NCBI GenBank assembly: GCA_042852035.1
Contig: BAAFHK010000003.1
Span: forward strand, 180,001 to 212,000
DNA length: 32,000 bases
Source: Candidatus Saccharimonadota bacterium
GTDB lineage: Bacteria; Patescibacteriota; Gracilibacteria; BD1-5; UBA2023
Direction of reading: 5' to 3'
This document shows, one piece after another, positions 1,251-20,549 of this stretch. A program made the translations under genes and the position numbers. A model generated the notes under the pieces. That model was not told where the DNA came from and did not search any database. It worked only from the letters and a program-made list of their open reading frames with translations. How positions within the stretch are numbered: position 1 is the stretch's first letter; the number at the start of each line of letters is the position of its first letter.

Positions 1251-1260
1251 CCCTTTATTT

Positions 1261-2655
1261 ATGATTTCTATTATTACTCAACTTACAAAAACTGATGCTT
1301 ATAATATTCTCATTGAAATAATCGACAATGAGTCAGTGAATTACTACAGAAACCTTTGATTTTCAAATGATATACTTCAATTTACTCAGGATCACCAAAA
1401 CGATAAAAAAAACAAAGGAAAGACTCTTACATTTCATGGGAATTTTTTTGGCGCGAAGATGCTTACGATTTTTTTTCCAAAAAAACTGAGTTTAAATGAT
1501 GATCGTGCAGATGCTATTCGAAATGCTCATAAAAATACACTTTTTTTACCCACAGAGAGCTTTGAAATGGCATATGAGATACTTACCCTTACAACATACT
1601 CATATGAGCGCTATCTCTCTAAAAAGGATGAAAAATCCTATAGTATTCTTGTTTCAGCAAATGCTAAAAAGCAAATACAAGAAAAGATACCTCTTTTAAA
1701 CGCTATAATCCGAGCTCGAGACATTATTAATCAACCCCCAACCGATACAAGACCAGAGGCTTTTGTTGAATATATATCATCCTATAAATGGAAAAACTTT
1801 ACTCTAAAAATCCTTGATGCAAAGGAATTAAAAAAAATTGGTTGTAATCTGCTTCTTGCTGTCGGTGCTTGAAGTGATTACCCACCATATATGGTTGTTC
1901 TTGAGCGTATTATTGATAAGAAAAAAGATACATATGCCCTTATAGGAAAGGGGGTTACTTTTGATGCTTGATGACTCCAAATAAAACCCGATACAGCCAT
2001 GTTGGATATGAAATGTGATATGTCATGAGCAGCAGGAATGCTCGGCGTTGCAGAATACCTTGATACGATTGAGACTCTTCCGGTAAATGTGGTTGTAGGA
2101 CTCGGTATCACTGAAAATGTTATCAATGGTAGAGCATTTAAACCACTTGATATTTATAAGGCATATAATGGAACGACCGTAGAAATACATCATACAGATG
2201 CTGAGGGTCGACTCGTTCTTGCTGATGTGATGTCGTATGTCGGAGAAAAATACAACCCCGACCATATGATCACTATGGCTACACTTACTTGAGCCTGTGT
2301 TTATGCACTTGGTCATGATATTGCAGGAATTATGGGTGATGATGAGAAAGTAATCGAGGCCCTTATTCATTCAGATTCTCCTTATGAAAAACTCTGGAGA
2401 CTCCCACTCAATGAAAAATTAAAAAAATCACTCAAAGCTGAAATTGCTGATCTTAAAAATGTAAATCGTACTGAAAAGGCAGGCTCTTCAGTCGGTGGGG
2501 CATTTCTTTCCTATTTCCAAGGAAAATCAAAACTTACACATCTTGATATTGCTGGACCAGCATACCGAGAAACTACTTGGGGATATATGCCAAAGGGTGC
2601 TACAGGTTGGGGAGTAAAAATTCTTTCAGAGTTTCTCTTGGGATTAAAAAAGTAA
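1261..2655 (+). CDS. pepA: leucyl aminopeptidase, M17 family
   Basis: Joins track ORFs 1459..1872, 2038..2292 and 2332..2655 (same frame) through TGA codons. Motifs GKGVTFDAGGLQIKP (the two Gly are TGA TGA at 1969-1974), MKCDMSGAAG, HHTDAEGRLVLAD and ATLTGA match the M17 active-site signatures. ATG 1261, TAA 2653-2655. Confidence 0.9.
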
Positions 2656-2688
2656 GAAACTTTTAATATTTTTCATGAGAATGAAAAA

Positions 2689-3300
2689 GTGAAATTTACT
2701 CACTTTTTAAGGGACATCTTTTTCCTTCAAAAAGAAGAAAAACCCACTGAATTATCTCCAAGAAATCTCACGGCTCACTATCGATATGAAAATTGAGATA
2801 TTTTTTTTGATGAAATATGTGTTGGTGGTAACTATAAGAATCTTTCCCATAAAATTGAGAGGTATAAATATCAGTCAGCTCGACATTTATCGACAGAGCT
2901 TGTCGAAGTTTTGTCGAAGTGTGTCGAAGTATCATGCTTCTTTTCTCAATGGGATGATTGGGAGGTAGTCCCTATTCCTATGCATTGGACCCGATATATT
3001 TTTAGAGGATTTCACCATACTAAAAAAATCGGTATTGAATTTTCTAAGAAATACAATTTCAACTTTTCTTCGCCAATTGGTACAAAGTGGACCAGGAGAC
3101 AATCAAAACTTAGGAGAAAAGAACGAATTCAGAATAAAAAAAATTCGTTTTTCATAAAAGATGGGTATACTGTTTCTTCGCATATAATCCTTATTGATGA
3201 TGTGACTTCCTCTGGATCAACCTTCAATGAGGCAGCGAAAGTATTATCTCTCGGTGGAGCAGAGTGTATTCTTTGTTTTGCCATAGCCTCAAATGCATAA
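2689..3300 (+). CDS. comF: ComF family phosphoribosyltransferase-like competence protein
   Basis: The C-terminal HIILIDDVTSSGSTFNEAAKVLSLGGAECILCFAIA is the PRPP-binding loop typical of ComF/ComFC. The frame is open from the pepA stop, with in-frame TGA at 2794. There is no upstream ATG, so the start is provisionally GVG-type GTG 2689 (MKFTHFLRDIFF...). The start is uncertain. Confidence 0.65.
2880..2930 (+). repeat. phased array of five TCGA-core repeats (2x TCGACA, 3x exact TGTCGAAGT) inside comF
   Basis: tcgacatttaTCGACAgagctTGTCGAAGTttTGTCGAAGTgTGTCGAAGT. The TCGA cores are at 2880, 2890, 2903, 2914 and 2924, giving spacings of 10, 13, 11 and 10 nt. Confidence 0.9.
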
Positions 3301-3302
3301 TT

Positions 3303-6155
3303 ATGTCAGAATTTATCGAAATTATTGGAGCAGAAACCCATAACTTAAAAAATATTGACCTTAAGATTCCAAAAAACAAGCTTGTTGTTATGACAGGAGT
3401 TTCTGGATCTGGAAAATCTTCCCTTGCTTTTGATACCCTCTATGCTGAAGGTCAAAAACGATATCTCGAGTCCTTATCGACCTATGCACGTATGATTGTT
3501 TCAGAGACTTCCAATGAAACAAGGGTTAGAGAAATACGAGGTCTTTCGCCAACCATCGCCATAAACCAAAAAACAGTTTCAAACAATCCAAGATCGACAG
3601 TTGGAACGATAACAGAAATATATGACTATTACAGACTTCTGTATTCAACGGTAGGTCAGGCATATTGTCCTAATCATTCACATATCATCCTAAAAAAGGA
3701 TACCTTGCAAGACATTGTCAAACATGTGTCGAAGTATGGCGAAGGAACAAAGTTTCATATCCTTATTGATCCAGCAAAGGACAGAAGTTTCTCAAATATG
3801 AGTGAGGTGTCGAAGTATGTGAGCGATCTTTGATTTGTACGCTTTCAAGCGAATGAGAACATCTATTCTGTAGCGGATGATGTATCTGAGATAGCTTACA
3901 CTGAAGGGATTAAAATCATTATTGATCGCCTGGTGGTAAAAACTTCAGAAGAAGAAAAGCATCAATTTGAAACAAGATTAAAGGACTCCCTTTTTCTTGC
4001 ATATGCTCGGTGAGAGGGAACGCTCTATCTCTATTTTCTTGACGACAAAAAATATTTTTCATTTCATGAGGATCCTGCTTGTCCTATATGTGGTTTTTCA
4101 CAGAAAGAACTTACCCTTTCGAATTTTTCATTTAACTCCCACCATGGAGCTTGTGAGGTCTGTCATGGAATCTGATCCTTCACTACTTTTCGAGAGCAAG
4201 ATGTTGTTAATCCCAATCTTACTCTCGCAGAGGGGGCACTTCTTCCATGGACCGCACATCCATATTATTCGGCCCTTCTTGAAGTAGTGTGTCGGCATGA
4301 AAAAATCGATATAAATGTTCCATACTCCACTCTAAGTCCTGATGAAAAAAATAAGATTCTCTATGGAGTAACTTGAAGCTTCGAGATTCCTTATATGGGA
4401 AAGTTTGATGAGGGAAAAACTCATAAATCTCGATATGAGGGACTTATACCAAATCTCGAAAGAAGATACCGAGAATCAGATATGGGGAATGATGCATTTT
4501 TTAAACGAATCGCCAACTTTGTCACAGAACAAGTGTGTCGAAGTTGTGGCGGACATCGTCTGAAGAAAGAATATCTTTCCGTATTGGTATGAGGAAAAAA
4601 TATTGGCGAACTAACTGATTTTTCTGTCGAAGATTCAAGATCCTTCTTTAATAATCTCATCTTTACAAAAGAAGAAAAAGAAATCGTTGCCTCTATTATG
4701 AAAAATATTACTGAGCGACTGGAATTTCTTTCATGAGTTTGACTGGATTATGTTACCCTATCTCGAAGAGCAAACACTCTCTCAGGATGAGAAAGTCAGA
4801 GAATTCGTCTTGCTACACAAATTGGTACAAGACTTGAGTGAATTATCTATGTTTTGGATGAGCCCTCTATCGGTCTCCATCCCCGAGATAATGAAATGCT
4901 CATACAAAATCTCAAAAGATTGGCAACGATTGGCAATAGTGTCATAGTCGTCGAACATGATGAAGACATTATGAGGGAAAGTGACTATATTATCGATATT
5001 GGACCACGAGCAGGTGTCCACGGTGGCGAAGTTATTTTCTCCGGAACATATGATGCAATTATTTCCTCACCTGAATCCGATACTTGAAGGTATCTATCAG
5101 GGAAGAATCGAGTTAATCGTCGACATTTTGTCGACACAAAATCGACAGAATATATCGCCATCATGTGAGCCGAGGAAAACAATCTTAAGAATATAAATGT
5201 TCGTATTCCTCTCGGATGTCTTACTGTTGTTACAGGAGTTTCCGGATCTGGGAAATCTTCCCTTATAATCGATATCCTTTCCGTTGCTCTGCAAAATCAC
5301 TTTAATGGTTCTACACATCCTGTTTGAAAACATCGTTCAATAGAGTGACTTGAAGCTATAGATAAGGCCATAATTATTGACCAATCTCCTATTGGGAAGA
5401 CTCCACACTCAAATATCGCCACTTATACGGGAGTTTTTACCTACATTCGTGAAGTGTTTGCTGCAAGCCATGAAGCCCAAAAGCGCTGATATGGTCCAGG
5501 AAGATTTTCTTTTAACACTAAAGGGGGTCGTTGTGAAATTTGTGAATGAAGTGGAGTAAAGAAGATAGAAATGCACTTTCTGCCTGATGTATATGTTGAA
5601 TGTGAATCCTGTAATGGAAGTAGATACAATCCAGAAACTCTCGATGTAAAATTTAAGGGAAAGAGTATTGCTGATGTTCTTGATATGACCATTGATGATG
5701 CTTGCGAATTCTTTAGTGCATTTCCGAGAATTAAGCGAGTTCTTGACGTTCTTCAGGATGTTTGACTTGGTTATATTACTCTTGGTCAGTCAGCACCGAC
5801 ACTTTCTTGAGGAGAAGCTCAAAGAATTAAGCTTGCTTTTGACCTAGCAAAACGATCAACGTGAAAAACACTATATATTCTCGATGAGCCAACAACAGGA
5901 CTTCACTTTTCAGATGTACAAAAACTTCTAGATATTCTCGATGCACTCGTAGAAAAGGGGAATAGTGTGATCGTTATAGAGCATAATCTTGATATTATCG
6001 CTAATGCTGATGCAATAATCGATATTGGATCTGAATGAGGTGATAAGTGAGGAAATCTTGTTTTTGCTTGACCACGTCAAAAACTTCTAGATGTCCAAGA
6101 GAGTTATACAGCAAGAGCACTGAGTAAATATCTTCATCAAAAGGGGGCTCTATAA
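3303..6155 (+). CDS. uvrA: excinuclease ABC subunit A
   Basis: A 950-codon frame from ATG 3303 to TAA 6153-6155 with 21 in-frame TGA by my count. Motifs: [23 protein letters not shown]-like N-terminus, two ABC signatures LSGGE (Gly = TGA at 4788 and 5808), second P-loop [25 protein letters not shown], and zinc-finger CxxC pairs. Track ORFs 3264..3833, 4395..4592, 4854..5087 and 5571..5765 are fragments of it. Confidence 0.95.
5120..5147 (+). repeat. three TCGACA repeats at 11-nt spacing inside uvrA
   Basis: gTCGACAttttgTCGACAcaaaaTCGACAgaa, with copies at 5120, 5131 and 5142. Confidence 0.85.
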
Positions 6156-6280
6156 TATCTTCCAAGGAGATTCCTCTTTCCCTCTTGTTTTCGAATTTTA
6201 TCGCGCATCACTCTTTTCCAGGATAATCCAATAGATTCCGAGCCTATGTTGAAGAGTGATTTTTTTTCATAGAAATTTTT

Positions 6281-6886
6281 CTAGAGGATCCATTCTATCT
6301 TGAAGTTGATAGAGTGTATCTGGGGTGCTAAAAAAATAATTTTTCAACCTGTTTCTAAAAAGGAAAAGCACCGATGAAGAAATCCATAGAGATCTTTTTT
6401 CCGAAGATATCAAGGGGAACAAAGAATGTATCGAAAAACAGTATCAAATTGGTAATCTAAAATATTTTGATCTGAAAAATTCCTTCTATTTTCCGGAAAA
6501 TATTGGTGTGCTTGCTCGATAGATTTTGAGAGAAAATCCACTCCATGAGGTGTAAGTTTAAAGGGTGATCTATCTTGGATAACCTTAAGAAGAAGGCCAT
6601 TTCCACATCAGAAGTCTATAATATGCCCATCAGCATTTATATTTTCCATTACAATATGCGCCTTCGTAAATAGATGTTCTTTATTTTCTCATATGATGCC
6701 ATTTGGTCGAAAAATATCGTTTCCTGTATATCATTCCCAATAGGTCTTCTCATACCATGCATGTTTCTTTTTATAGTACCTTCTGGCAAGGAGGTGATCA
6801 AGGAAGTCTCTACGAAAATATTCTTCCTGCTGTTTTTTCCAATATTGGTGTATGGCTCCTTTAAGATTTTCTATAAAGTGGTTCAT
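6281..6886 (-). CDS. class I SAM-dependent methyltransferase
   Basis: Hand translation of the minus strand from ATG (6884-6886) to TAG (6281-6283), 201 aa. SAM-binding motif I is IIDFGCGNGLLL (one Gly = TGA at 6608-6610). It starts 9 nt downstream of the DUF4256 stop. Confidence 0.7.
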
Positions 6887-6894
6887 AGTGAGAA

Positions 6895-7449
6895 TTATAT
6901 TTTTATAAAGCCACGAAACCCTCGAGCAGCGTAGTATGAGTCCGCCCCATTATGATAGGTAAAAACTCTATCATATCTTCTATCGCCATAGAGTGCGCCT
7001 CATTTGGAACGGATTTCTTTAGGAGTGTCGATCCATGTCGAAGTTTTAGTGTCGAAATTGTCGATAGATTGAAGCTTCCTATACTGTTCTTCATTTAAGA
7101 GGTTGATGCCTATTTCTTTCGCCATTTGTTCGACAGAACTTTTTGGTTTATTCTCTTTCCTTGCTATGAGAGCAGCCTCATCATAACAGAGACTTCTCCT
7201 CCCTACTGGACTCTCTGTCGAACAATCGACAAAGTATATATCTTCGCCATCAGTTAGCTCCACTACATCTGGTTCTCCCCCGCTTTCTTCCATTCGTTCG
7301 ATGATGGCAAGAGTGTCAGGGTTGGCGAGAAGTCCCTTTTCCACTTCTTCCCAAGTGATATTTGGATGACGGTGTGGGTGCGCGAGAAAGCGTGATTTGA
7401 AATTATCCATAAAATTAAGATTAAATTCTCCAACTATATGCACATTCAA
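6895..7449 (-). CDS. DUF4256 domain-containing protein
   Basis: Track ORF 7000..7449 continues through TGA (7000-7002) to TAA at 6895-6897. The joined C-terminus KGGALYGDRRYDRVFTYHNGADSYYAARGFRG, plus GGEPDVV and FDTKTSTW, match my recollection of the DUF4256 family. Length about 184 aa. The start is TTG 7449 or an internal ATG (MDNFKSRF). Confidence 0.7.
7026..7065 (+). repeat. four TGTCGA(N) repeats inside the minus-strand DUF4256 gene
   Basis: TGTCGAtccaTGTCGAAGTtttagTGTCGAAATTGTCGAtag, with copies at 7026, 7036 (exact 9-mer), 7050 and 7059. Confidence 0.85.
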
Positions 7450-7465
7450 TATATTTATTTATTCC

Positions 7466-7921
7466 TATTTTCATTTCTTCTTCTATTAAGAATACTCATC
7501 ACATTTTCTCATAAAAATGTTTTGATGGATTTTCTTTTAATACCCATACCAATATTTTTTTACATTGTAATATTTTTAAGTACTCCATCGCTTCTTTAAA
7601 AAGACGATTTCAAATATTCATTCTTTGATATTGTTCCAAAATATATAACGATGAAATAAGTCAATCATGTCAGTGAATTTCTTTTTTTAACTTTTCCAAA
7701 GCAATGAAGCCAATTATAGTATTATTTTTTTCTGCGACATAGACCACTATATCTTTATCTTGAAGAATATTTTCCCATTTAACTATCTTGTCTTCTAATG
7801 AGAGATCATCGAGATATTGGGCATCAATTATTCATTTATAAGTTGTTTTCCAACTTTCAATGTGAACTTTTGCTATATTCTCAGCATCGTTAGGATTTCA
7901 TTTTCGAATTCCGGTATCCAT
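7466..7921 (-). CDS. GNAT family N-acetyltransferase
   Basis: Hand translation from ATG 7919-7921 to TAG 7466-7468, 151 aa, with 6 in-frame TGA. IRKGNPNDAENIAKVHIESWKTTYKGIID ... IIGFIAL ... YQRMNIGNRLFKEAMEY ... LVWVLKENPSKHFYEKMG fits the GNAT acetyl-CoA binding core (Q/RxxGxG/A). Confidence 0.7.
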
Positions 7922-7930
7922 TTTGATAAA

Positions 7931-8851
7931 TTAATGCCCTATCCTTAACATATCCTCATGCACACTATTGGCCGCAAGACACCCTTCAGCAGCACTCATG
8001 ATGGTCTGACGGAATTTATTACTATTGGTCGTCACGTCTCACGCGGCATAGAGGCCCTTCACGGTTGTCTCTTGTCTCTTGTCGACGATGAGGCATCCGT
8101 CAGCATCCTTTTCAGGATTCATGCTGTCAACAATCTTTGTAAATGGTGTCGAACCAATGGCGACGAATACTCCATCGACGGGGAGTGTTTCGCCACTATT
8201 CAGTTTTAAGCCCGTAACTCCCATCATGCCACCTTCGACACTTTCGACTTGAGTATTCATATGGAAGGTGATATTTTCACGAGATTTTGCCTTTTCTACC
8301 CAGATATCTTCCGCTCTGATTCGGTCTGATCTGACGAGGATGTGGACGTGTTTACAGATTTCTGAGAGATAGAGTGCTTCGGTGATAGCAGTATTGCCAG
8401 CACCGACAACTGCGACAGTGAGATTTTTATAAAAGTTCCCATCACAGGTTGCACAATAAGATACTCCTTGTCCGTAGAATTCCATTTCGCCAGGTGCGCC
8501 AAGTTTTCGGTATTCATTTCCAGTGGCGAGGATAACCCTTTTTGCCTCGTATGAGTCTCATTTTTGAGTCTTTATTTCGAACTTATCTTCGCCAATCTTT
8601 GACACACTTTCGACACGATCTTGGATGATAACTGAACCCGCAGTTTCAGCATGTCGACGAAAGTTTTCCATGATTTCGCCACCAGGAGCAGAAAGGGTTC
8701 CAGGATAGTTTTCTACACAGTGAGAGGTTGCGAGAGCACCACCGGGCATTTCGCCAATGATAGCATTTTGGATTTTGTACCGAGAAGCGTACATGCCGGC
8801 AGGAAGTCATGCAGATCCGGCGCCAATTATTATAAGATCGTAGTGGTTCAT
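7931..8851 (-). CDS. trxB: thioredoxin-disulfide reductase
   Basis: Joins track ORFs 8558..8794 and 8039..8485 (same frame). The N-terminus is MNHYDLIIIGAGSAGLPAG (Gly = TGA at 8807-8809). Also present: redox-active CATCDG, the NAD(P)H site VAVVGAGNTAITEALYL, and the C-terminal GLYAAGDVT (TGA at 8039-8041). TAA at 7931-7933. Confidence 0.9.
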
Positions 8852-8854
8852 ACA

Positions 8855-8885
8855 GAAAAAATTAATAATGAGAATAATTCTCATT
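8855..8885 (-). terminator. putative intrinsic terminator after the PH-domain gene
   Basis: Hairpin AATGAGAA-taa-TTCTCATT (8867-8885) is followed on the minus strand by a T-rich run (A-run 8856-8861 on the + strand). Confidence 0.4.
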
Positions 8886-8924
8886 ATATAGAGGAGTGTC
8901 TAAATTGCAAATGCTTCTCTTCGA

Positions 8925-9470
8925 TTAAGAATTATTTTGAGGTGTTGTGACATGTGCATTTCGATAGGCCTGGATAACATTATTAATTCTGCGAGCATTT
9001 TCTATTGGATCAGGAGCATAATTTACGATCATGTTTGATGTCTCACTTGCTGTATGTATATGAACATCCCCATAACCAAAGATGGTCTGAAGGATTCATG
9101 CTGTATGGGCATTTACTTCTTGGACACGGTCAAGGCTACATTCGGTTACTCGTCGAGAGAGTGCAGAAATCTGCTCGATGCCGATTACTCGAGAATCGGT
9201 GATAATAAAAAGATCCAGCTCATCATTAATCCAATCAAGAAGAATGAATGTAAGGAATGCAATCCAATACACCGTAATACCCGCCCAATATATGGCCTCA
9301 TAACGAATGATATCGATAATAGCGAACTTATAGGTGAGAAGTATCCAAGTTGTAAGGACAAACGTCAAAAAATAGAGAAAGTGATAGACGAGTATTATCC
9401 AGTGTCTATGGAGGGTCATTACGACTTGCTCATTGTCTTTGAGGAGGGAAATATGTTCTTTTTTGACCAT
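8925..9470 (-). CDS. bacterial PH domain (bPH_2, YdbS/YdbT-like) membrane protein
   Basis: Track ORF 9096..9470 extends through TGA (9096-9098) to TAA 8925-8927. Two N-terminal TM helices are followed by ELDLFIITDSRVIGIEQISALSRRVTECSLDRVQEV...GILQTIFGYGDVHIHTA, typical of membrane-flanked PH domains. Alternative start is ATG 9417-9419, which overlaps the tsaB stop as TAATG. Confidence 0.6.
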
Positions 9471-10000
9471 GTTATGTGTGGTTCTTTGAGATAAATCGGG
9501 GAAAGTTGATCCACGTTTGAGATTCTCTCGAAAATCTTTGAGATGTATGGTATTTCTTCGGTATATTCTATAAACTTTTTTGCATCTGTAAAATCATTTT
9601 CATTTCCATATCAGCAGTATGATTCTTTGTTCTTAAGTTGTGATTTCTCTATGAGGAATGGGCCATCTTCTCCAAGAATGATGTATTCTCGTTCATTGGC
9701 GATAAGTATCGGGTTTGGATGATTTATAATCTCAAAAAAATGAACCCCCTTCAATGGGATTTTTTTTACGAGAGAAATAGTATTGAGTGTCAGAGTTACT
9801 ATTCGCATTCTCGTGAAAGATCAAGGTCAAACAATACACCAAATTGTGTCGATATTATGTCGATTTATAATAGTAGTTACCTCCTCAGGAAACATATTGT
9901 AGTCATTTCATTTTGGTATTGTCGAAGTATGTCGAACTTCGCCATTTTCAATAACAAAAAGTCGTATTTCTTGACCGATGGGATTGACAAATAGTATCAT
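9419..10000 (-). CDS. tsaB: tRNA threonylcarbamoyladenosine biosynthesis protein TsaB (YeaZ-like)
   Basis: Joins track ORFs 9908..10141 and 9611..9808 (same frame) through TGA codons. IDTIWCIVGPGSFTRMRIVTLTLNTISLVKKIPLKGV matches the GPGSFTGLRIG core of TsaB. The start is taken at ATG 9998-10000 (MILFVNPIG). TAA at 9419-9421. Confidence 0.7.
9847..9938 (+). repeat. two pairs of TGTCGA(N) repeats inside the minus-strand tsaB gene
   Basis: TGTCGATattaTGTCGAT at 9847 and 9858 (11-nt spacing). TGTCGAAGTaTGTCGAACT at 9920 (exact 9-mer) and 9930 (10-nt spacing). Confidence 0.85.
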
Positions 10001-10088
10001 AGGCTGAGTATAACTAAAAATACAAAAAAGGCGAGAATTTCTTATCTCGATCTCCGAGCAATATGTTTTATGGGTTATCAATATCTCT

Positions 10089-11603
10089 CTATGACGATCC
10101 TCGGTATGAGAGCGCTTCGAGGATGTGTCTTGATTCAACAAATTCCTCTCAATCTATATCAGCAATCGTTCGTGCTACCCGAAGGATGCGATAAAATACG
10201 CGAGTTGAAAGATGGAGTCGTTCGGTTGATGTTATGGCTATTTTTCGGGCCTCTTCTTTGATCTTCCCAAAATAATCAATATCTTTATTATTCATTTCTG
10301 CATTTTGATGGAGGTTGGTTCCATGAAATCGCTTTTTTTGAATTAATCGGGCTCATTCTACAATCTTTCGAATTTCAGCACTTGTTTTTCCTTTATTTTT
10401 GTTTTCTAATTCACCCGCTTTAATCCGGGGAACCTGAATAAAGATATCAATACGATCAAGAATAGGACCCGAAAGTCGTGATCGATATCTTTCTATAGAA
10501 CTTGCTGTACAAAGGCATTCTTTTTGAGAGTCTCCCATATATCCGCAAGGACAGGGATTCATTGCTCATATGAGTGCAAATCTTGCAGGATATCGACAGC
10601 TCATATTTACCCGATTAATGCTGATTTCTCCATCTTCAAGCGGCTGTCTCAATGTCTCGAGTATTCTTTTATCGAATTCAAGAAACTCATCGAGAAAAAG
10701 AACCCCCTTATGTGCGAGTGATATTTCTCCCGGCCGAGAATCTCTTCATCATCAGACTATGGATGCTTCACTTGCTGTATGATGGATAGTTCGAAAGGGT
10801 CTATCTAAAACAAGTGGCATTTCTTTTGTGAGGAGTCAGGCCACGGAGTATATTTTTGAAAGTTCAATTTGCTCCTCGACTTCCATATCTGGGAGAATGC
10901 TTGCGAGAGCCTTTGCAAGGAGGGTTTTTCCTGATCAGGGTGGTCACTGCATGAGGATATTATGTCATCAAGTTGCAGCTATGAGTAGGGCCCTCTTTGC
11001 CTGTTCTTGACCGTGAATGAATGAAAAATCTATCCCAAGATATCCTTTTGGAATTTTTTTTATATCGAACTTCGGGGCTGCTTCTATGATTTTTTGTCCA
11101 GTCAATAGATCAACCACATCGCTCAGTTGATCAACACCAATAATATCAATACCAGGAATAATTGTTGCTTCGGGGATATTTGCTTTTGGTAAGAAAATCC
11201 GTTTATATCACAACTCTCTTGCGAGGATTGTTGCTGGAAGGGCTCACTGAACTCATCGTACCCCTCCATCGAGAGCAAGCTCCCCGAGAAAGAGGGAGTG
11301 GGAAAGGATCTCTTCTTGAAACTCGATTTCTTTGCCAAGAATTCCAAGAGCTATAGGTAAGTCATAAATGGGTCACTTTTTCTTGAGATCAGCAGGAGCC
11401 AGATTCACCGTGATTCGGGCTCATCCAGGGAATTTATATCACGAGTTTTTCATGGCACTTCTTACGCGCTCTCGGCTTTCTTGTATTGCAATGTCCCCGA
11501 GTCATACTATCGTGAATTGTCACATTCCAGTAACAACATCAACTTCAACTTCTACGAGATTTCCAATAATCCCATGCATCGAGGCTGAAAAAAGTTTTTG
11601 CAT
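10089..11603 (-). CDS. comM: YifB/ComM family Mg-chelatase-like ATPase
   Basis: A 504-codon minus-strand frame from ATG 11601-11603 to TAG 10089-10091. The N-terminus [37 protein letters not shown] and [11 protein letters not shown] match ComM. Also present: a P-loop (GPPGSGKT with TGA glycines), the track ORF 10353..10562 segment [10 protein letters not shown], and the C-terminal [30 protein letters not shown]. Confidence 0.9.
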
Positions 11604-11776
11604 TTCTTGAATATACGAAGAAATATTGCGGAAATATTACTTTTCTTCAAAATTCCATCCTCATTCCTTCTTTGGACCATTTTCCATAATCTTGTAAAGT
11701 GAAAATGAAGCCGAATGTTTGGAATGATATTATGAATCTGTTACTATAGACTCACACCTTAGATTGCTAATTTTGT

Positions 11777-14773
11777 ATGCAGCGTTACCTTTACATATTC
11801 ATTGTGTATTTTCTTTCCTTCGTTGAATACGCGGGTGCAGTTAATAGATATGTAGCTACAAAGGAAGAAAAATGAGTTCAGTCGAGTAAGATTGGAGATT
11901 TTGTCGTAACGATCCTTGAAAACACTATCAATCTTCTTCTTTTTATCGTAGTTGCTTGGATTATGCTCAAGGTTATTCGCCTTGGGTATGAGGTGTTAAT
12001 GTCTGGACGACTTGTTTGTATGAAGGTCACACTCCCTCGTGCAGATTCAAAACTTGATAAAGAAAGAGAAACAAAAAAAGACTTTAAGGAGAAAGTTGGT
12101 ATCATGTCAATTTTTTATAAGTCAGTTCATAATCTTACCCAAGCAAGTGCCCTTGATACCGTAATGAATTTCTTCTTTAGGCATGCAAAAATTTCCCTTG
12201 AACTTATGTATCATGATGGGATGGTACATTTTTATGCCATAGGATATCAAGAGCACATGTCTCTCGTGGTTCAACAAATTACTTCAAACTACCCTGATGC
12301 CGAAGTAAAACTTATAGAGAGGGATAAATTTCCTGAAATTAAACCACTTGGCTTTACTCTTCAGGCAGCATCAGTCGGGAAGGTAAATGACGACGTTTTC
12401 CCTATTAAGACCTATAAATACTTTGAAGATGATCCACTTTCATCGTTTACGAATAACTTCTGATCACTCAAGAAAACGGATGTTGCATCAGTACAAATGG
12501 TGATGAAGCCACTTGGACATTCTTGGAATCGAAAAGCAAAACGAGCCGCAGGACTTGTGGCAAAAGGAGAGTATAAAAAGGGAATGAAATCCTCATTTAT
12601 CGTACAATTCTTAAAATGACTTATAGCACCAATAAATTGGCTTGCCTATCGTTTTGTGAAAAACGAGCAAAGCCCTGGGAGTAATGCTCCAGGGGCTACA
12701 AGCGGTGATTCGTATAAGATTTTTAACCAAGCAGAAACAGAAGCACATAAAATGGTTGGTGAGTCAGCGGGTCAGCCAGGATTCGCTGCATCTATAAGGA
12801 TTCTCGTTGCCTCTGATACGAGCGAATCAGCAAGAAATGCTCTACAAAATCTCGTAGCGGCTTCCTCTATTTTTACGGATGAATATAATAATCAACTCGA
12901 TAATCCACAACTCCTCGAAGATACTTTCCGCTTCCTTTTTACTCCATTACGATATTTTGCCTACCGATTTAGACTTCTTGGTATTCTTCAGACCGTATCA
13001 AAGTTTTCTTGTGATGAACTCTCAACGATATACCATTTCCCTGATATTAATTATAATAAGTCTCCAGTAATATCGTGGCTTGAGTATAAAATGCTTTCCC
13101 CTCCACCGAATTTGAGATTTCCCAAGGAGCCACTCATCATGAAGGACTATAAAAGAGATGCAAAGGGAAATATTTTCACAAACGACGGATCCCTTCTTCA
13201 GGTTGATAAGAATAAGAATCTTGTAAGAACGGCAGATAAAGACCTCCTTCTTCTTGACGGTACAGTTGTTCCAGTAGCTAAGGAAGGAGAATCAGTGGGT
13301 CGCCCTATCGATGAAGGGAAGACGCCAGTACAGGCTGATTTGCACCGTACACTCCAATGATTCCCACTCTTTAAAGATGGTGTTCTTATGGGATGGAACG
13401 AATACCGAAATCATCGTACCCCAATATATTTTGCCAAAAAGGATCGCGGACGTCACCACTATATAATAGGTAAATCTGGTTGAGGTAAGTCAGTATTTAT
13501 TGGATACCTTGCTCGCCAGGACCTTTGGACGGGGGATGGGCTCTGTGTTATTGATCCTCATGGTGATCTAGTAGAAGACATCGTTTCATTTACGCCAAAA
13601 GAAAGGGCTAAAGATATGATTATCTTTGATCCAGCAGACTATGAACGTCCAATGGGGCTGAATATGCTTGATATTATTGCAACTGACCCAGCTCTTCGAT
13701 CAATCGAGAAAGATCGAGCAGCCCTCGATGCTACCTCTATATTTATTAAGATGTACGGTGATGAGATATTTGGGCCACGTATCCAACACTATTTCCGTAA
13801 TGGATGTCTCACCCTCATGGATGATGAAGAAGAAGGAGGAACACTCATTGATGTGCCAAGACTATTTGTCGATGAATGATTCATGAAATACAAGACATCG
13901 AAGATAAAAAATGTAATGGTGAAAGCCTTCTGGGATCATGAATATGCTCAGACGGGTGATCGAGAAAAACAAGAAATGATTCCGTTTTTCTCAGCAAAAT
14001 TTGGACCATTCATCACAAATACAACCATGCGTAACATTATTGGACAGACGAAATCTGCCTTTAATCTGCGTCAAGTTATGGATCAACAGAAGGTTCTTAT
14101 GGTGAATCTTTCAAAGGGTCGCATCGGAGATCTCAATGCTCAACTTCTCGGTCTCATTATGGTTTCAAAAATTAATATGGCCGCAATGAGTCGTGCTGAT
14201 ATTCCGGAAGATCAAAGAAAAGACTTTTATCTTTACGTCGACGAATTTCAGAACTTTGCGACCGATACTTTCTGAGAAATCCTCTCTGAGGCTCGTAAGT
14301 ATCGACTAGCACTTATTATGGCTCACCAATTTATCGCTCAAATCTGAGGAAGCGGTGCAAAAAAATGAGATAAACCTTCTATTAAAGATGCTGTATTTGG
14401 GAATGCGGGAACAATCATGTCTTTTAAGGTTGGTGCTGAAGATGCTGAATATCTCGAGAAAGAATATGCTCCAATGCTCTCACAACAAGATATTATTTGA
14501 ATTGCGAATTTCACAACTTACTGTAAACTCAATATCGATAATGCAACAACTCGACCATTCGATCTTAAGACAATTTGGGACAATACCTATAAGAATGCAG
14601 AAGTATCGAAGATTATCAAAGAGTACTCAAGAAAAATGTATGGAAGAAAAAAGGAGTATGTCGATATGGAAATCGAGGCCCGCATGGGTATTGTACGAGA
14701 AGAAGAATCCCAGAGTACTCCCACTCCTTCTGCTGACCCAACTTTATGAAATCCTAACCAAGGAAATCCTTAA
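11777..14773 (+). CDS. VirD4/TraD-like type IV secretion coupling ATPase with N-terminal membrane anchor
   Basis: Frame open from ATG 11777 (preceded by TAA 11768-11770), through TGA 11873, into track ORFs 11963..12463, 12656..13360, 13616..13879 and 13883..14275, ending at TAA 14771-14773 (998 codons). It has two N-terminal hydrophobic segments. Motifs: Walker A HHYIIGKSGGGKS (Gly = TGA 13481-13483), VIDPHGDL, Walker B FYLYVDEFQNFAT, ARKYRLALIMAHQFIAQI. The N-terminal VCMKVTLP...HFYAIGYQEHMSLVVQQITSNYPDAEV region resembles the domain preceding TraD-like ATPases in CPR genomes. Confidence 0.75.
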
Positions 14774-14779
14774 ACTCCT

Positions 14780-16009
14780 ATGAACTTCCTTCACCGACTC
14801 CTCCCAGTGGTCGTATTCATCTTAGTAGTGCTTGATGCTGTACTTCTTTTCTGATTTTGAAATCAGTGAATTTTGAAGTGATTTGTAAATAGCTCACCAC
14901 TTCTCTCTTCGCTGATTATTTTAGCATGACTTCCGCTTCTCTATTTTATTACGTATAAAGCCTATATCTGACCGATACAGAGACTCAATAAAAGTATTTC
15001 TCGTTTTATGACGGGGATAGATGAAGAGCCAGTTCTTGAAGCAAATGCCTGGAGTAAGGGGATGAATTATGTTATTTGATTTTTTGTAAAGTCGCTTCAA
15101 ATTCTCCGTATTTTCAAAAAGGAACTTAGAGAAGGAAGACAGCTTCGAACCGAAGTAGAAATCGCATCAGAAATACAAAAGAACGTTATGGCGGATAGCA
15201 ATAGTATCGTTCCTTCTTTGGAGATTGCACTTGCGACACATTCTGCTTCTGAGGTTGGAGGTGATTCTCTTGGTATTATCTCTTGAGTGGATGAAAACTA
15301 TTACATGTATATATGAGATGTAACTTGACATGGCGTTCCAAGTGGGCTTGTTATGATGATGGTGAATGCTCTGGTATCAGCATTTGTACTGAGAGAAGAA
15401 AGCAGTGCGAAAGTGCTTGCCGAAACAAATCGAATCCTAAAGCCTCGCATTAAACAAAATATGATGATGAGTGCAGTAATGCTTCGGTGGGACTATAAAG
15501 ATAAGGCACTCTACTATACTTGAGCAGGACATGAATTCATTCTTCTTTATAGCAAAAGAGAAAACAAAGTATTCAAAATTAAAACGGGTTGAGTAGCTCT
15601 TGGTATGATGAGAGATGCATCAAAACTTTATAAAGAACAGCAGATTCGATTTGAGCCTGAAGATATTATTATTCTTTATACGGATGGAGTTACAGAAGCT
15701 CGTTATCGAAGTGAACAAAATTGACTTCTTTTCGGAATTGATAAAATGGTCGAGTCAATTTTGAAGGTTCCAGAAAAAACAGCAGATAACATTTTTCGAC
15801 AAATCACTATCGATCTTTCGGCTCATATGGGCTATAAACACAAGCAGTACGATGATATTTCTCTTTTTGTCGCTCGATATGCTGGAGGTTCAGGATCTAC
15901 GAATACAGCAGCTCATGAACTTATAGATCAGAGTAATATCACAGAATGGAATTGGTGAAGAGCTCCCGTAACCTTCAAACCCTCGCTAACACTAGATACA
16001 AATTCGTAA
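14780..16009 (+). CDS. membrane-anchored PP2C-family (SpoIIE/RsbU-like) serine phosphatase
   Basis: ATG 14780 lies 6 nt after the preceding stop, in the same frame as track ORF 15746..15958. Two N-terminal TM helices and a linker are followed by EIQKNVM...SEVGGDSLGI...YIGDVTGHGVPSGLVMMMV...GAGHEFILLY...IIILYTDGVTEAR...DDISLFVARY, the SpoIIE/PPM signature. In-frame TGA at 15956 is followed by 16 codons, then TAA 16007-16009. Confidence 0.85.
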
Positions 16010-16012
16010 CAT

Positions 16013-18067
16013 ATGGCAGTTCCTACGCTCGCTGAGCTCATACAAGAAAACTATACGTGAGATGTCGAATGACTCGAAGCACCTCTTTTGGTCAATCCTC
16101 CTGAAATAAAGAAAGAAATCGAAAAAACTGATATAAATGCAAATTTTTTCCCTTCGAATGAACCCCAGAATAGTCCTACTGCCCCTGTCCCAGCAAGAGT
16201 GAATATTGATTCCGATCCTTCAAGTTCACTTTTTATTACCCCAGAGATGGCGCAGCCACCGTCATCCAGTGCACCAAATCCGAAGAATGTTTCGATGGTT
16301 GAGGATCCAAATAAAAAGCTTACGAAAGAAGAGGCTGAAGAGCTCAGAAGAACTGAAAAAGAATATAAAGAGGCTCTTGCGTTTGTGAAAGATATGATTG
16401 CTCCGCCCATGATGCGAATCGATGCAACCAAGCTTCAGATTGGAGATACTTTTGTGAGAACTACCTATACGTACGCTTATCCTGATGTTTTGGAAGGGAA
16501 TTGGCTTTCCCCTCTTATTAACTGGGATGTAAAATTCGACGTATCCATGTTTATTTATCCAGTTGATTCAGCCCATGTGATGCGCTTTCTTCGGAGGAGA
16601 CTGACTCAGCTGAGGTCCCAGTATGCAATCAATCGTGATAAATGACTTATAGAAGACCCTCATCTGAATGCCCAAATGCAAGATGTTGAAGAGCTTCAGG
16701 TGTCACTTACACGAGGTCAGGAGAAATACTTTCATTTCTCTCTCTATATTACCACGTATGCAGAGACTGAAGATGATATGAAGCGTCTCTCGAATACTCT
16801 CGATGTCATGCTCTCAGGTCGAAATATTCTTACAAAGCAAGCCCTTCTTCGTACGGAGCAGGGGTTTATCGCAACAGGTCCATTCGCTCGAGATGAAGTA
16901 CTCGTGTACCGAAATATTTCAACAAAAGGTCTTTCGACAACTTTTCCTTTCTCATCAAATTCTCTTTCCCAGGACGATGGAATATTTTACTGAATAAATA
17001 CCCATAATAATTCTCTTATTATTTTTGATCGCTTCAGAACAGAAAATGCGAACATGTGCGTTTTTGCAAAATCAGGTTGAGGAAAGTCTTTTGCTGTAAA
17101 ACTCGAAATTCTTCGGTCGCTTATGATGGGGACTGATGTTATCGTTCTAGATCCTGAAAATGAGTACAAGGCTCTTGTTGATACGGTTTGAGGAACTTAC
17201 TTAAACATTAATCTCAACTCGAACGAACGTATTAATCCTTTTGATCTTCCAAGAGGCATGAAAGATACTGAAGCTCATGCTGGAGATTTGCTACGATGAG
17301 CGATTGTGAATATGATTGGTCTTCTTCGTCTCATGCTCGGAAGTGTGACACCAAGTGAAGAGGCAATTATGGAACGAGCACTGATAACTACGTATTCTCT
17401 TAAGGGGATTACTATGGAAGATGATCGAGCGGAATGAAAGGAAGTTCCACTTATGAGAGATTTTGTGTCGGTACTTGAAACTATGGATGGAGCAAAATGA
17501 CTTGTTGAACGACTTGATAAATATGTCAATGGAGTTTTTGCATGAGTTTTCTCTGAGCCAACAAATGTAGACCTTAAAGATGGACTTGTTGTATTTTCAG
17601 TTCGTGATCTTGATGAGATTCTCCGTCCAATTGCCATGTATATTATCCTTAATTACGTTTGGAATGTTGCAAGAAGTTCAGAGAAAAAACGAACTCTTGT
17701 TGTGGACGAGGCATGGAATATCATGCAGTATGAAGACTCAGCAAAATTCCTCTTCGGTCTTGTAAAGCGAGCTCGTAAATATGGACTCGGGGTTACAACC
17801 ATTACTCAGGATGTAGAGGATTTTATGCAGAATCAATATGGGAAAGCTATCGTAACAAATTCTTCAATCCAACTTCTTCTTAAGCAGTCACCCGCATCAA
17901 TCGATATATTACAAGACACATTTAAGCTTACAGAACAAGAAAAATATATTCTCCTAAATGCTTCAGTTGGTACGGGCCTCTTCTTCGCGGGAGGGGAGCA
18001 TGTTGGTATCCAGATCCTTGCCTCGTACTTCGAAGAGAAAATTATTACGACGAAGCCGAAGGTATAA
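16013..18067 (+). CDS. VirB4/TraC-like type IV secretion ATPase (DUF87/AAA_10-like)
   Basis: ATG 16013 lies 3 nt after the phosphatase stop. It joins track ORFs 16088..16645, 16676..16993 and 17636..18067. Motifs: Walker A MCVFAKSGGGKSF (Gly = TGA 17078-17080), VIVLDPENEY, Walker B RTLVVDEAWNIM, RKYGLGVTTITQDVEDF, SSIQLLLKQ. The first ~110 aa are Pro/Ser/Glu-rich low complexity. Confidence 0.85.
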
Positions 18068-18212
18068 TAATTTCTGGAAAATTCCGTCAGAGAGTTCTAC
18101 GGATTCGAGAGTGAGAGTTTATCCAGTTGAGAGTTCGGAATATTTTCATAAGATTTTTGATAGTCTCTTTTTGATTTGGATTTATTCAATCAAGTGCTAA
18201 AAGTACACGATT

Positions 18213-18719
18213 CCTAAAATCTTGTTCAAGGCCTTTAAGTTCAAATTCCGGAAATTCTGTTGCGAATGTTTTTTGTCAGCGTCTTCGATCATCATTTCTA
18301 TCAATTATATCATCATAGACCTGCATCCAAGAGCCTAGCTGGAAGACTGCTGCATTCAGGCTTTCATGGTCTCATGTTCCAAAAAATTGTCCAAATCCAA
18401 TAGTCATGGTTGAAGTATTTCATCAGGTGTCTCGTGCAATATTTACCCAATCATCAAATGACCCTCCTTCCATAATTAATTGATTCCGTACTACAGACTC
18501 GAGTCTTTTTAATGTGTCACAAAGGTCACTATTTTCTCAAATGAGTTTATGAAATTCAAAGGCTAAAAGCTCGAGTTCATGCAAATGAGGGGTATCGAAA
18601 TACAGCATCTCACTCGTTTCTCAAGAAAGTAGTAGAAGAAAATGTTTTAATATTTCTCTCTTATGTTCCACCGCAAGCTCAGAGTATTCATTATCGGTGA
18701 GATTATCAATATTTCTCAT
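18213..18719 (-). CDS. hypothetical protein, polyprenyl-synthase-like C-terminal-half remnant
   Basis: Hand translation from ATG 18717-18719 to TAG 18213-18215, 168 aa. ARDTGGNTSTMTIGFGQFFGTGDHESLNAAVFQLGSWMQVYDDIIDRNDDRRRGQKTF resembles the KTG...G.aFQ..DD..D second Asp-rich region of trans-prenyltransferases. No first DDxxD motif was found and the C-terminus is short. Confidence 0.35.
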
Positions 18720-18748
18720 GACTATTCAAAATAGCATGGCAGCAAGTT

Positions 18749-18946
18749 TTATACCTTTTCTTTTATTTTCTGGTACTCAGTAGAGTTTTGATGATACATC
18801 TCAGGTCCAATATCAAATTCCGGCACGAAAGCTCGCATGTGTAAGAAGAATCTCGCGAACTTTTCATTGAATATTGGGGAATTTTTCTTGTATAAAGTGA
18901 CGATATTCAACCCTTCATTCATATATTTGTCAAAGTCATCTTGCAA
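18749..18946 (-). CDS. small hypothetical protein
   Basis: Track ORF with a TTG start (first ATG at 18920-18922 gives 57 aa) and a TAA stop at 18749-18751. It lies immediately upstream of the ORF above, in a different frame. No recognisable motif. Confidence 0.25.
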   Translation of the reverse strand: MQDDFDKYMNEGLNIVTLYKKNSPIFNEKFARFFLHMRAFVPEFDIGPEMYHQNSTEYQKIKEKV

Positions 18947-18977
18947 GCATGAAATTATTTATATATAAATAATTTAT

Positions 18978-19205
18978 TTAGTCAATAACTATTACTTTCT
19001 TTCGAGTATTTGTCCATCCGCCCACAATCTCCCACTTCCTCCCTGTCTCTTCTTCGAGGTATTCGAGGAGTTCTGTATTTGCTTTCCCATCTTCTGGGAT
19101 GGCTTTGAGTCGAATTTTATAGCTTCCGTCATCCATTATTCCTACAAATTCTGTCTTTTTTGCTCTTGGGATGACCTTTATGGTGAGGATGTTGATGTCG
19201 GGCAT
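18978..19205 (-). CDS. DUF167 (YggU-like) family protein
   Basis: Only the C-terminal 75 aa of track ORF 18978..19721 is taken (MPDINILTIKVIPRAKKTEFVGIMDDGSYKIRLKAIPEDGKANTELLEYLEEETGRKWEIVGGWTNTRKKVIVID). This is the typical DUF167 length and pattern (V.P.A..... ..l...APP.dGkAN..l). The rest of that ORF is antisense to mtaB. Confidence 0.7.
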   Translation of the reverse strand: MPDINILTIKVIPRAKKTEFVGIMDDGSYKIRLKAIPEDGKANTELLEYLEEETGRKWEIVGGWTNTRKKVIVID

Positions 19206-19250
19206 GAGAGAAAGTTGCATACTCGGAGTTTCTCGATATAAAGTGGCTCT

Positions 19251-20549
19251 ATGGAGTATAAAGTTTTCGGGTGCAAAACCAATAGATATTTTGCAGAAAA
19301 GTGGCTCATGCATCCTCACCTTGAGGGAAAGGGGGGATATTTTATTGCCTCTTGTGTTGTCACGGATAAGGCGAAGGCTAAATGGCTCAAACATGCTAAA
19401 AGAGTAATCCCAAAGCTCGAAAAAAACCAGAGCCTCTACCTCTCTGGGTGTGGTAATATTCGTGATGGAGTTGTCGATCCAAAATTCTATGAGATCTATC
19501 CGGAACTTAGTGATTATCGAGAGAAAATAGAGATCCTCCCCGAAGATCCTGAGGATTTTACTCTTACTCCTGAGCAAAAAAAGGAAATTATGGTGAGCAA
19601 AATCAGAAAGCTCAGAAGTCTTAAGAAAGAAGGTATTTTCACGCGTAAGTTCCTCGTCGTTCAGACGGGGTGTGATAATTTCTGTACCTTTTGTCTTACG
19701 GTTCAGGCTCGGGGTCGACATAAATGGAGGCCTATTGATGAGATTCTTGAAGAAATCAATGACTTTATTGATGGAGGAGGCAAAGAGGTAGTTCTTACAG
19801 GTATAAATCTTTGAGCCTGGTGATCCCCATCATCAAATGACTTCCAGTTGTCGAAGTTTGTCGAACTTGTCGAAGTTATTCTCAGAAAAACTACTATAAA
19901 TCGCTTAAGAATCTCATCACTTGGTGTCGAATTTATGTCGGATGAACTAATTTCACTTTTTTGAAAGAAGCGAATTAATCCCTATGTTCATCTTTCTATT
20001 CAATCAGCATCATCAAAAATACTGAAAGCAATGAATCGTCACTATACTGGAGATAGGCTTCGAGAGGTTCTCGAGAAATTGAGAAACGTAAAACGTGAAG
20101 ATGGGCAACTCCTTAATATCTGAGCTGATCTTATCGTAGGTTTTCCAGGTGAAACAGAAGAAGACTTTTGAGAAACAAAGGAAATTGTCGAAGTATTTAA
20201 AATTACCCAACTTCATGCTTTCCCTTTTTCAGCACATATTGATCACTATCATGTACCAGCAGGGACTTATCCAAATCAAGTACCAAATCATGTTATACAG
20301 AGAAGGCTCAAAGAGCTTCTTCATGTTTGAGAACGAACATTCCTCTCTTTTGCAGAAAATGCGATTGGGAAAGAATACTCTGTTCTTCTTGAGAGAGTCA
20401 ATGGTCAGAATTTTTCCGGGTGGTCAGAAAATTATCTCTACTGTAATGAGACAAACTTTGAGGTATTCCCATGACAAGAGCTACGAAGGGGCGCTATTAT
20501 TCATTGAATTTATAAAAGCCCTATAATACATTCAAATGAAGAAGGTTAA
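19251..20549 (+). CDS. mtaB: radical SAM methylthiotransferase, MiaB/RimO family (MtaB-like)
   Basis: Track ORF 19251..19814 continues through 6 TGA codons to TAA 20547-20549 (432 aa). Features: the N-terminal MTTase domain FGCKTNRYFAE, the radical SAM cluster motif GCDNFCTFC, IVGFPGETEEDF, and a TRAM-like C-terminus. Confidence 0.8.
19849..19876 (+). repeat. three tandem TGTCGAA(G/C)T repeats inside mtaB
   Basis: TGTCGAAGTtTGTCGAACTTGTCGAAGT at 19849, 19859 and 19868, encoding LSKFVELVEV. Further copies lie at 19925 (TGTCGAATT) and 20186 (exact). Confidence 0.9.

Follow-up and report, generated by a model that had tools for sequence, protein, structure and literature searches.

A single 9-mer, TGTCGAAGT, occurs 11 times on the + strand of a 32,000-nt stretch of bacterial DNA, while its reverse complement does not occur at all, and the question raised by this locus is what maintains such a word. 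The stretch, hereafter called the window, comprises positions 180,001–212,000 of contig BAAFHK010000003.1 (assembly GCA_042852035.1) and belongs to a member of Gracilibacteria that reads UGA as a sense codon. A first-pass annotation, made from the letters of the window, had listed the 11 copies, and all 11 coordinates proved exact. We found that the 9-mer is one form of a short box, TGKCGAW (K, T or G; W, A or T), which recurs in rows with the period of the DNA helix. Because the boxes are phased, are selected as DNA, are indifferent to gene and frame and cluster in the domain of a probable replication origin, we tentatively favor a reading in which rows of boxes on either side of the origin are bound by a cooperative protein, with a centromere-like or initiation-controlling function. 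That a protein binds the boxes, that oriC lies at the center of the domain, and the cellular role itself are the parts of this reading that we infer.

A phased heptamer and selection on the DNA

TGTCGAAGT is the most frequent 9-mer of the window. Shuffled sequences in which dinucleotides were preserved contained 0.22 copies on average and never more than 2. We also shuffled synonymous codons within each gene, preserving every protein and the codon usage of each gene, and obtained 0.63 copies on average and no more than 4 in any of 1000 runs. The over-representation claimed by the first-pass annotation therefore holds against both null models, including the codon-aware one that it had itself proposed. 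Because synonymous shuffling yields so few copies, the enrichment is real and lies at the level of the DNA.

When genes were called with translation table 25, all 11 copies were located within genes (comF, uvrA, DUF4256, a tsaB-like gene and mtaB), where they use three sense offsets as well as the antisense strand. This mapping of genes and frames confirmed that the motif lies inside genes of both orientations and is read in all frames. The accompanying statement that one-mismatch variants are all on the + strand was incorrect, since 22 were found on + and 6 on –. The hexamer core TGTCGA exceeded expectation on both strands (30 versus 8.2 on +; 17 versus 7.6 on –).

At aligned positions of related loci, TGTCGAT and TGGCGAA replace TGTCGAA, and we therefore took TGKCGAW as the unit; TGTCGAAGT is best read as the form of this 7-bp box preferred by the lineage. 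The window contains 60 boxes compared with 14.4 expected, 32 on the + strand and 28 on the – strand, almost all of them within genes and in all six frames. The G variant, TGGCGAW, alone accounts for 21 boxes (5.3 expected). As a side observation, the T variant TGTCGAW was found 27 times on + and 12 times on –, and the G variant 5 times on + and 16 times on –. Over 181 kb of related loci, we collected 407 boxes. Frame use (176 sense and 140 antisense copies) displayed a modest preference for the sense strand, and the commonest frame was xxT-GTC-GAA on that strand, encoding Val-Glu.

Ten phased box pairs were present in the window, compared with 0.02 expected, and 9 of the 10 are on the + strand. 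Among the 118 distances of at most 40 bp between same-strand neighbors in the 181 kb of related loci, 78 measured 9–11 bp, with minor peaks at 21–22 and 30–33 bp; convergent pairs in the same loci showed a peak at 8 bp, which produces the palindrome TGTCGAAnTTCGACA. An unbiased scan for any 6-mer recurring at 9–11 bp ranked TCGACA top in the window and in one related locus (L121) and third in another (L207), and a scan of this kind in control regions returned no word. A spacing of 9–11 bp with these additional peaks is the pattern characteristic of sites that share one helical face.

We compared the window with a sister genome (ENA scaffold_504, represented by loci L203 and L206; 73–75% nucleotide identity to the window) and with a second closely related genome (L202). 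Third codon positions were identical to the sister in 53% of cases outside boxes (4659 of 8733), in 69% of cases in single boxes and in 92% of cases in clustered boxes (78 of 85; Fisher's test for the contrast of clustered boxes, P = 2e-14). TGTCGA cores were retained in both L202 and L203 in 10 of 19 cases, compared with 9.6% of all 6-mers. Similarly, 34 of 45 boxes were still boxes at the aligned position of L206, compared with an identity of 16% for all 7-mers, and 6 of these 34 had undergone T/G or A/T swaps within the consensus. The peptide differs where comF boxes are kept, ELVEVLSKCVEVS corresponding to SFVDILAKCVEVS and EYVDILAKTGDIY in relatives. From the identity of third codon positions, it follows that selection acts on the DNA itself; the earlier proposal to this effect, that the target is DNA and not a peptide, is borne out alike by the codon-aware null, the use of six frames and the third-codon conservation. 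We also considered whether the arrays are inserted sequence and rejected this possibility, since array-free orthologues are equally long at that point.

Clade, regional distribution and a candidate oriC

Read with translation table 11, the window falls into fragments; with UGA as a sense codon, it carries about 30 genes that cover 93% of the DNA. In-frame TGA was present in 27 of the 29 genes examined, with a maximum of 21 in uvrA. The summed length of open reading frames of at least 200 amino acids (aa) in six frames, divided by the window length, was 0.09 with TGA as a stop and 1.14 with TGA as a sense codon. UGA recoding is real in this genome, because almost every gene carries in-frame TGA. 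MtaB is 100% identical to a protein encoded on a 256-kb contig of an NCBI metagenome-assembled genome, and relatives identified by MtaB bear the names Candidatus Gracilibacteria or Candidatus Altimarinota. As a negative control, we used 977 kb of uvrA loci from other bacteria, obtained from a metagenome scan with UvrA in which 4 of the 80 loci were relatives. The control contained the 9-mer 4 times, 0.34 boxes per kb and 2 phased pairs; related UGA-recoded loci had 0.7–7.4 boxes per kb, with as many as 19 phased pairs. The arrays are restricted to a sub-clade of Gracilibacteria (Candidatus Altimarinota).

Within these genomes, the arrays are regional and not genome-wide. Positions 1–10,000 of the window hold 45 of the 60 boxes and 20 of the 21 G-variant boxes. 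We computed a density profile from seven genomes anchored on the start of uvrA, after masking repeats in surface-protein genes of L206 and L207. Density peaked at 4.5–5.8 boxes per kb from –2 to +6 kb (the end of pepA, comF, uvrA, trxB and tsaB), fell to 0.2–1.0 per kb from –6 to –2 kb and rose again to 1.7–2.9 per kb from –10 to –6 kb (glyA and comEC). Farther out, it was mostly at most 1.5 per kb, with the exception of isolated clusters such as that in mtaB. The same contrast was observed within two single genomes in which mtaB does not adjoin uvrA: in one, the uvrA locus L207 and the mtaB locus L201, about 45 kb apart on one 1.29-Mb contig, contain 7 versus 0 phased pairs, and in another, the uvrA region (L214) and the mtaB region (L204) contain 11 versus 1. 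We also scanned 185,579 species genomes, one per species, for the tandem 9-mer and obtained at least 120 loci. Among the matches listed, six UGA-recoded loci (L030, L035, L074, L085, L092 and L095) all fall in this neighborhood, at several sites; by our own estimate, for genomes of about 1.2 Mb, it is very unlikely (about 1e-9) that all six would do so by chance.

Intergenic DNA, with L206 left out, contained 4 boxes compared with 3.7 expected, whereas coding DNA was enriched about 3.1-fold; with a coding-like enrichment, about 11.5 intergenic boxes would be expected (Poisson P about 0.01 for 4). The first-pass annotation had considered that the copies might be confined to the window by a local duplication. 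Confinement to a region was indeed found, but duplication as the source was rejected, since the arrays are spread over different genes and keep their positions in orthologues.

The density trough holds a divergent intergenic region of 300–470 bp with a GC content of 17–23%, from which the genes point away on both sides (L206:4721–5191, L207:4703–4996, L214:4872–5179 and L213:1–177). The word TTTTTCACA, which agrees at every position with the relaxed consensus for DnaA boxes, TTWTNCACA, occurs in the AT-rich region of 5 of 7 loci, and in L206 it occurs as an inverted pair. By synteny, the region should lie about 1.5–2 kb beyond the left end of the window. For the closed genome 28_42_T64 (CP042461.1; 27% GC, UvrA 56% identical, same gene order), the record starts exactly in the orthologous AT-rich region, and over the next 18 kb the GC skew, read away from this region, is uniform at +0.16. 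The window itself carries recF, rnpA, yidC and, judged by synteny, rpmH. Judging from these sequence features, namely the TTTTTCACA words, the start of CP042461.1 and the recF, rnpA, yidC and rpmH genes, the AT-rich divergent region is probably oriC, as a candidate with no adjacent dnaA; no dnaA gene was present in any locus read. No rows of TGKCGAW were found inside the AT-rich region, and canonical parS sites and DnaA boxes showed no enrichment in the window.

Individual arrays and neighboring genes

The comF array (2880–2930) is composed of two – boxes, TGTCGAG at 2880 and TGTCGAT at 2889, followed by three exact 9-mers on + at 2901, 2912 and 2922, with a spacing of 10–11 bp; the encoded segment reads ...ELVEVLSKCVEVS.... 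The layout of two – boxes and then three + boxes is shared by L206, in which the variants TGTCGAT and TGGCGAA appear. The layout also occurs in L074, L134 and L085 and is absent in L092, L121, L122 and L207. The comF frame (2656–3300) contains no ATG before residue 108, and homology to ComF extends from about residue 20–67. The gene probably starts at a non-ATG codon located upstream of the boxes, which would place the array in the 5' part of the gene.

In uvrA, a phased pair of G variants on the – strand (3545–3561; TGGCGAA and TGGCGAT) is identical in L206 at both boxes. A second pair, on + at 3727–3743, consists of TGTCGAAGT and then TGGCGAA; tandem boxes occupy the orthologous site in L085, L092 and L206, the last of these with the T and G variants in reverse order. 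The single exact 9-mer on + at 3808–3816 corresponds in L206 to TGGCGAA, which is still a box. A loose group at 4509–4631 contains boxes at 4509 (–), 4536 (+), 4604 (+) and 4625 (+), all four identical in L206; the box at 4536 is an exact 9-mer encoding the CRSC zinc-finger segment, and the distance from 4604 to 4625 is 21 bp. A further cluster of mixed orientation (5120–5160) contains three TGTCGAC forms (5120, 5129 and 5131) together with – boxes at 5141 and 5154, the latter two being identical in L206.

The DUF4256 gene carries an antisense row of four boxes on + (7026–7065; 7026, 7036, which is an exact 9-mer, 7050 and 7059), all kept in L206. A second group in this gene (7118–7249) combines a – phased pair at 7118 and 7129, which is kept in L206, with boxes at 7216 (+), 7225 (–) and 7243 (–), which are lost there. 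The trxB boxes (8147–8756) lie predominantly on the sense strand of the gene, here –, and include those at 8189, 8234, 8486, 8588, 8609, 8675 and 8750; at the site 8588–8615, L206, L121 and L214 have a clean row of three boxes. In the tsaB-like gene (9847–9944), + pairs at 9847 and 9858 and at 9920 (an exact 9-mer) and 9930 are accompanied by an inverted G variant at 9938. L202, L203 and L206 have retained these arrays, while the flanking third codon positions decay.

The mtaB array (19849–19931) has + boxes at 19849, 19859 and 19868, two of which are exact 9-mers, and an additional box at 19925. A block of about 31 bp from 19849 is 100% identical in L202 and L203, with all third codon positions included, and its flanks show the usual third-position decay. 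Elsewhere, the site holds a weaker pair (L204) or a single box (L201). An isolated exact 9-mer on + in mtaB (20186–20194) is not conserved in L202 or L203.

The gene order of the neighborhood is comEC, glyA, S41 peptidase, then across the AT-rich region a small gene, a 450-aa gene, a membrane protein and pepA, followed by comF and uvrA and, further on, trxB, tsaB, comM, the genes resembling a type IV secretion system (T4SS) and mtaB. In the window, comM and then the T4SS-like set occupy 10089–18067 and 23256–24394. This set comprises DUF8128 (VirD4-like in L214), a SpoIIE phosphatase and a VirB4/TraG-like ATPase, with TraC-like and PrgI-like genes further on. Together with the nearby comEC and comF, it forms a dense neighborhood for DNA transfer and uptake, and the T4SS-like set is poor in boxes. 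Some relatives harbor very large surface-protein genes with Ig-like repeats (885 to 3301 aa) directly after uvrA, for example at L206:12915–19400 and L207:12879–22784. Their coding repeats contain a sense-strand TGTCGAT every 21–30 bp or every 324 bp, which inflates box counts.

Readings of the arrays

If the boxes are sites for a cooperative protein, as we tentatively favor, a predicted sequence-specific DNA-binding protein would fill successive boxes on one helix face as monomers or dimers, head-to-tail in direct rows and head-to-head at inverted junctions. The bound protein would build a large origin-proximal nucleoprotein complex, which may serve segregation or condensation, as parS clusters do, or control initiation, by analogy with clustered DnaA boxes or 0A boxes. 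The boxes would mark out a domain a few tens of kilobases in size that flanks the AT-rich probable origin on either side. The first-pass annotation had suggested three candidate roles, and among them a site bound by a nucleoid or segregation protein agrees best with helically phased rows in one neighborhood that is probably origin-proximal. The other two, an uptake sequence and a Chi- or FtsK-orienting polar sequence (KOPS), require a genome-wide spread that was not seen 14–60 kb away in the same genomes. Two proteins encoded beside the AT-rich region were examined as binders and rejected: the small conserved protein is acidic and the protein of about 450 aa looks membrane-anchored, and neither is a candidate for DNA binding.

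Several known systems illustrate how such rows might be read. Spo0A binds TGTCGAA 0A boxes, including pairs 3 bp apart, and does so also at oriC (PMC2731898). The 0A-box consensus is identical to the 7-bp core described here and tolerates imperfect variants, and the joint binding of 0A-box pairs with a 10-bp period parallels our spacing peak at 9–11 bp. However, 0A boxes lie in promoters and at oriC, whereas the boxes here form rows in housekeeping genes over tens of kilobases, and Spo0A is a sporulation regulator of endospore-forming Firmicutes, unlike the UGA-recoded Gracilibacteria (Candidatus Altimarinota) that host the boxes. The annotated genes of about 170 kb of loci gave no match to Spo0A_C. 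The likeness may thus indicate how the rows can be read, and it does not indicate the presence of Spo0A.

With respect to location and intragenic embedding, the closest analogy appears to be parS clusters. In Corynebacterium, Streptomyces and Myxococcus, 10–24 parS sites lie near oriC. Many parS sites lie within tens of kilobases of the origin, as the boxes probably do; both kinds of site are placed mostly in coding sequence, with strong conservation at the DNA level and a role independent of the host gene. They differ in that parS is a 16-bp palindrome, TGTTNCACGTGAAACA, whereas the box is a heptamer without palindromic symmetry, repeated in phased direct rows; a search of the window for parS with at most 3 mismatches gave a single site (2 mismatches on +, 3 on –), no more than in shuffles. 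With respect to the architecture of the rows, the closest analogies would be plasmid tandem-repeat centromeres, low-affinity DnaA arrays and tandem 0A boxes. In plasmid centromeres and iterons (parC/ParR of R1, parH/ParG and tubC/TubR), small proteins bind direct repeats cooperatively and form a higher-order complex. The direct-repeat period of about 10–12 bp in those systems, roughly one helical turn, is matched by the boxes. However, plasmid centromeres are single compact intergenic loci beside a par operon on plasmids or phages, whereas the rows here are short (2–5 boxes), numerous, spread over 10–30 kb of chromosome and contained within genes. No par-like genes were annotated near the arrays.

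A DNA uptake sequence, comparable to the DNA uptake sequences (DUS) of Neisseriaceae and the uptake signal sequences (USS) of Pasteurellaceae, would be spread over the whole genome, coding regions included, by uptake bias and recombination. The boxes share with these systems an over-represented, clade-specific short word that is used in every reading frame and in either orientation and retained at orthologous sites, and the neighborhood contains comEC, comF and comM, which themselves bear arrays; lineage-specific preferences for the tail also resemble DUS dialects. However, known DUS and USS occur genome-wide in hundreds to thousands of copies, at about one per kb, and are unphased, whereas the arrays vanish at the distances given above, and among the matches listed all six recoded loci fall in one neighborhood. 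The uptake sequences of Neisseria and Haemophilus are enriched in intergenic DNA, the opposite of the coding-only enrichment measured here. To our knowledge, no uptake sequence forms rows spaced by one helical turn, and we found no literature report of uptake sequences in bacteria of the Candidate Phyla Radiation (CPR). We accordingly regard uptake as distinctly unlikely.

A replichore-polar signal of the Chi or KOPS type, kept on the leading strand because a translocase or helicase-nuclease reads it, is less credible still. It was suggested by the distribution of the exact 9-mer and by the preference of phased pairs for the + strand, which carries a mildly positive GC skew without a sign change at the scale of the window. 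Moreover, the AGT tail is restricted to + cores in the window (11 of 30 versus 0 of 17, Fisher's test, P = 0.004), and the + to – counts of the exact 9-mer in the sister and close genomes are 2:0 (L202), 3:0 (L203) and 6:2 (L206), the two – copies in L206 lying to the left of the putative origin. However, many of the sister-genome copies are orthologous to window copies and are not independent counts. Other relatives gave 3:6 (L121), 7:3 (L074), 2:2 (L122), 0:4 (L085) and 0:5 (L095), and the box itself is nearly balanced. Box clusters are of mixed orientation in every locus, composite arrays included, and their orientation bears no relation to the sign of the local GC skew. The strand polarity asserted by the first-pass annotation thus stands for the exact 9-mer in the window and the sister genome and fails for the other relatives and for the box, and a comparison of motif orientation with local GC skew, a local version of the check that it had suggested, revealed no tracking. 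Polarity characterizes the cleanest copies locally and does not amount to a rule for replichores in general. In addition, the distribution is regional, and we know of no role for tandem rows or palindromes in the recognition of Chi or KOPS.

The possibility that the boxes are the DnaA boxes of this clade, or the sites of a regulator competing with DnaA, so that the rows titrate or position the initiator near oriC in the manner of datA or the DnaA-box clusters (DBCs) of Bacillus, is unlikely but deserves more weight than either of the above. The reverse complement of the box, WTCGACA, matches the relaxed consensus WTNCACA at 6 of 7 positions, so that the core is one base away. The low-affinity DnaA arrays of E. 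coli oriC are built of closely spaced 9-mers in the same orientation, and the 9-mers here, 1–2 bp apart and in one orientation, resemble them. The location is also probably origin-proximal, as in the DnaA-box clusters, and 0A boxes overlap the oriC of Bacillus and block initiation (PMC2731898). However, position 6 is G in the boxes, where DnaA boxes have C at this key position, and the first two positions of the 9-mer (AC) mismatch TTWTNCACA. The AT-rich region contains canonical-type TTTTTCACA words and lacks rows of boxes, so the specificity of DnaA seems ordinary in the clade; because the canonical-type boxes sit separately there, DnaA does not seem to be the reader.

It is hardly plausible that the arrays result from chance, coding bias, local duplication or copying of a pan-bacterial micro-repeat of the form (..CACTGAGC)n(TTGTCGAAGTG)n. 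The frequent Val-Glu frame is what a coding bias would produce, but the codon-aware null was exceeded more than 15-fold and all six frames are in use; against duplication stand the unrelated host genes and the conservation in orthologues. The micro-repeat merits attention since the tandem 9-mer is also found in Flavobacteriaceae, cyanobacteria and other groups, and the comF array sequence ACAGAGCTTGTCGAAGT is one mismatch from the junction of the element. However, its CTGAGC half is missing from the arrays except at one junction, and the element is intergenic and belongs to standard-code genomes. It shares the 9-mer with the arrays but appears to be otherwise unrelated.

This micro-repeat, which dominated the matches of our genome scan, is a composite intergenic element, (..GTCACACTGAGC)n followed by (TTGTCGAAGTGy)n, sometimes nested in a pair GTCATTCCGAGC...GCGAGGAATC. 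CTGAGC and GTCGAAG are constant, and the flanking 4–6 bases are complementary (CACT/AGTG), so that nested hairpins are possible. It was observed in Flavobacteriaceae (many of them Aquimarina), cyanobacteria, Thiomargarita, Chlorobiota, Latescibacterota and two IMG/VR phage contigs (L208 and L209); examples among loci L001–L120 are L100:2450–2620, L033:2360–2460, L091:3030–3150 and L062:750–960. Viral contigs gave five tandem 9-mer matches, none of them recoded, and two carry the micro-repeat. No Rfam family and no literature match were found for it.

Several observations weigh against the reading of the rows as origin-flanking sites for a cooperative protein. The closed genome CP042461.1 contains only 2 boxes in 17.9 kb and L123 carries few, so the arrays are not needed by every member of the phylum, and individual arrays, such as the comF row, have been gained and lost between lineages. 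In regions far from uvrA (about 64 kb in three genomes and the right two-thirds of the window), single boxes are still about twofold above expectation. Pfam annotation of the neighboring genes revealed no obvious candidate for the binding protein. The origin assignment is indirect: the AT-rich region has no DnaA-box-like word in 2 of 7 loci, the GC skew across it in array-bearing genomes is weak and shows no clear sign change, and the paper on the closed genome (10.1101/595074) reports a normal bidirectional skew and does not state on what basis the start of the record was chosen.

The binding-site reading can be taken a step further. In an undescribed system of this sub-clade, hundreds of 0A-box-like heptamers in housekeeping codons on both sides of oriC would be occupied by a putative cooperative reader, which replaces or supplements ParB/parS; we consider this extension possible but doubtful. 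Both the reader protein and the system have a real chance of being new. In the literature, we found nothing on the 9-mer, nor on uptake, polar or centromere motifs in Gracilibacteria or other CPR bacteria, and the repeat described in the closed-genome paper (10.1101/595074), which encodes PTD, is a different one. No Rfam family was found at the arrays.

For genome scans, these results carry a caution, since a motif that seemed polar and genome-wide in one window proved to be regional and unpolarized in relatives. For the proteins concerned, the boxes constitute a second code laid over the coding sequence, which shapes local peptides of UvrA, ComF, TrxB, MtaB and others. A conserved and readily recognized cis-element provides a handle on replication, segregation and chromosome organization in uncultured UGA-recoded CPR bacteria, as a potential bait for its binding protein, and the box arrays could be used as a marker of a chromosomal domain, perhaps of the origin, in fragmented metagenome-assembled genomes.

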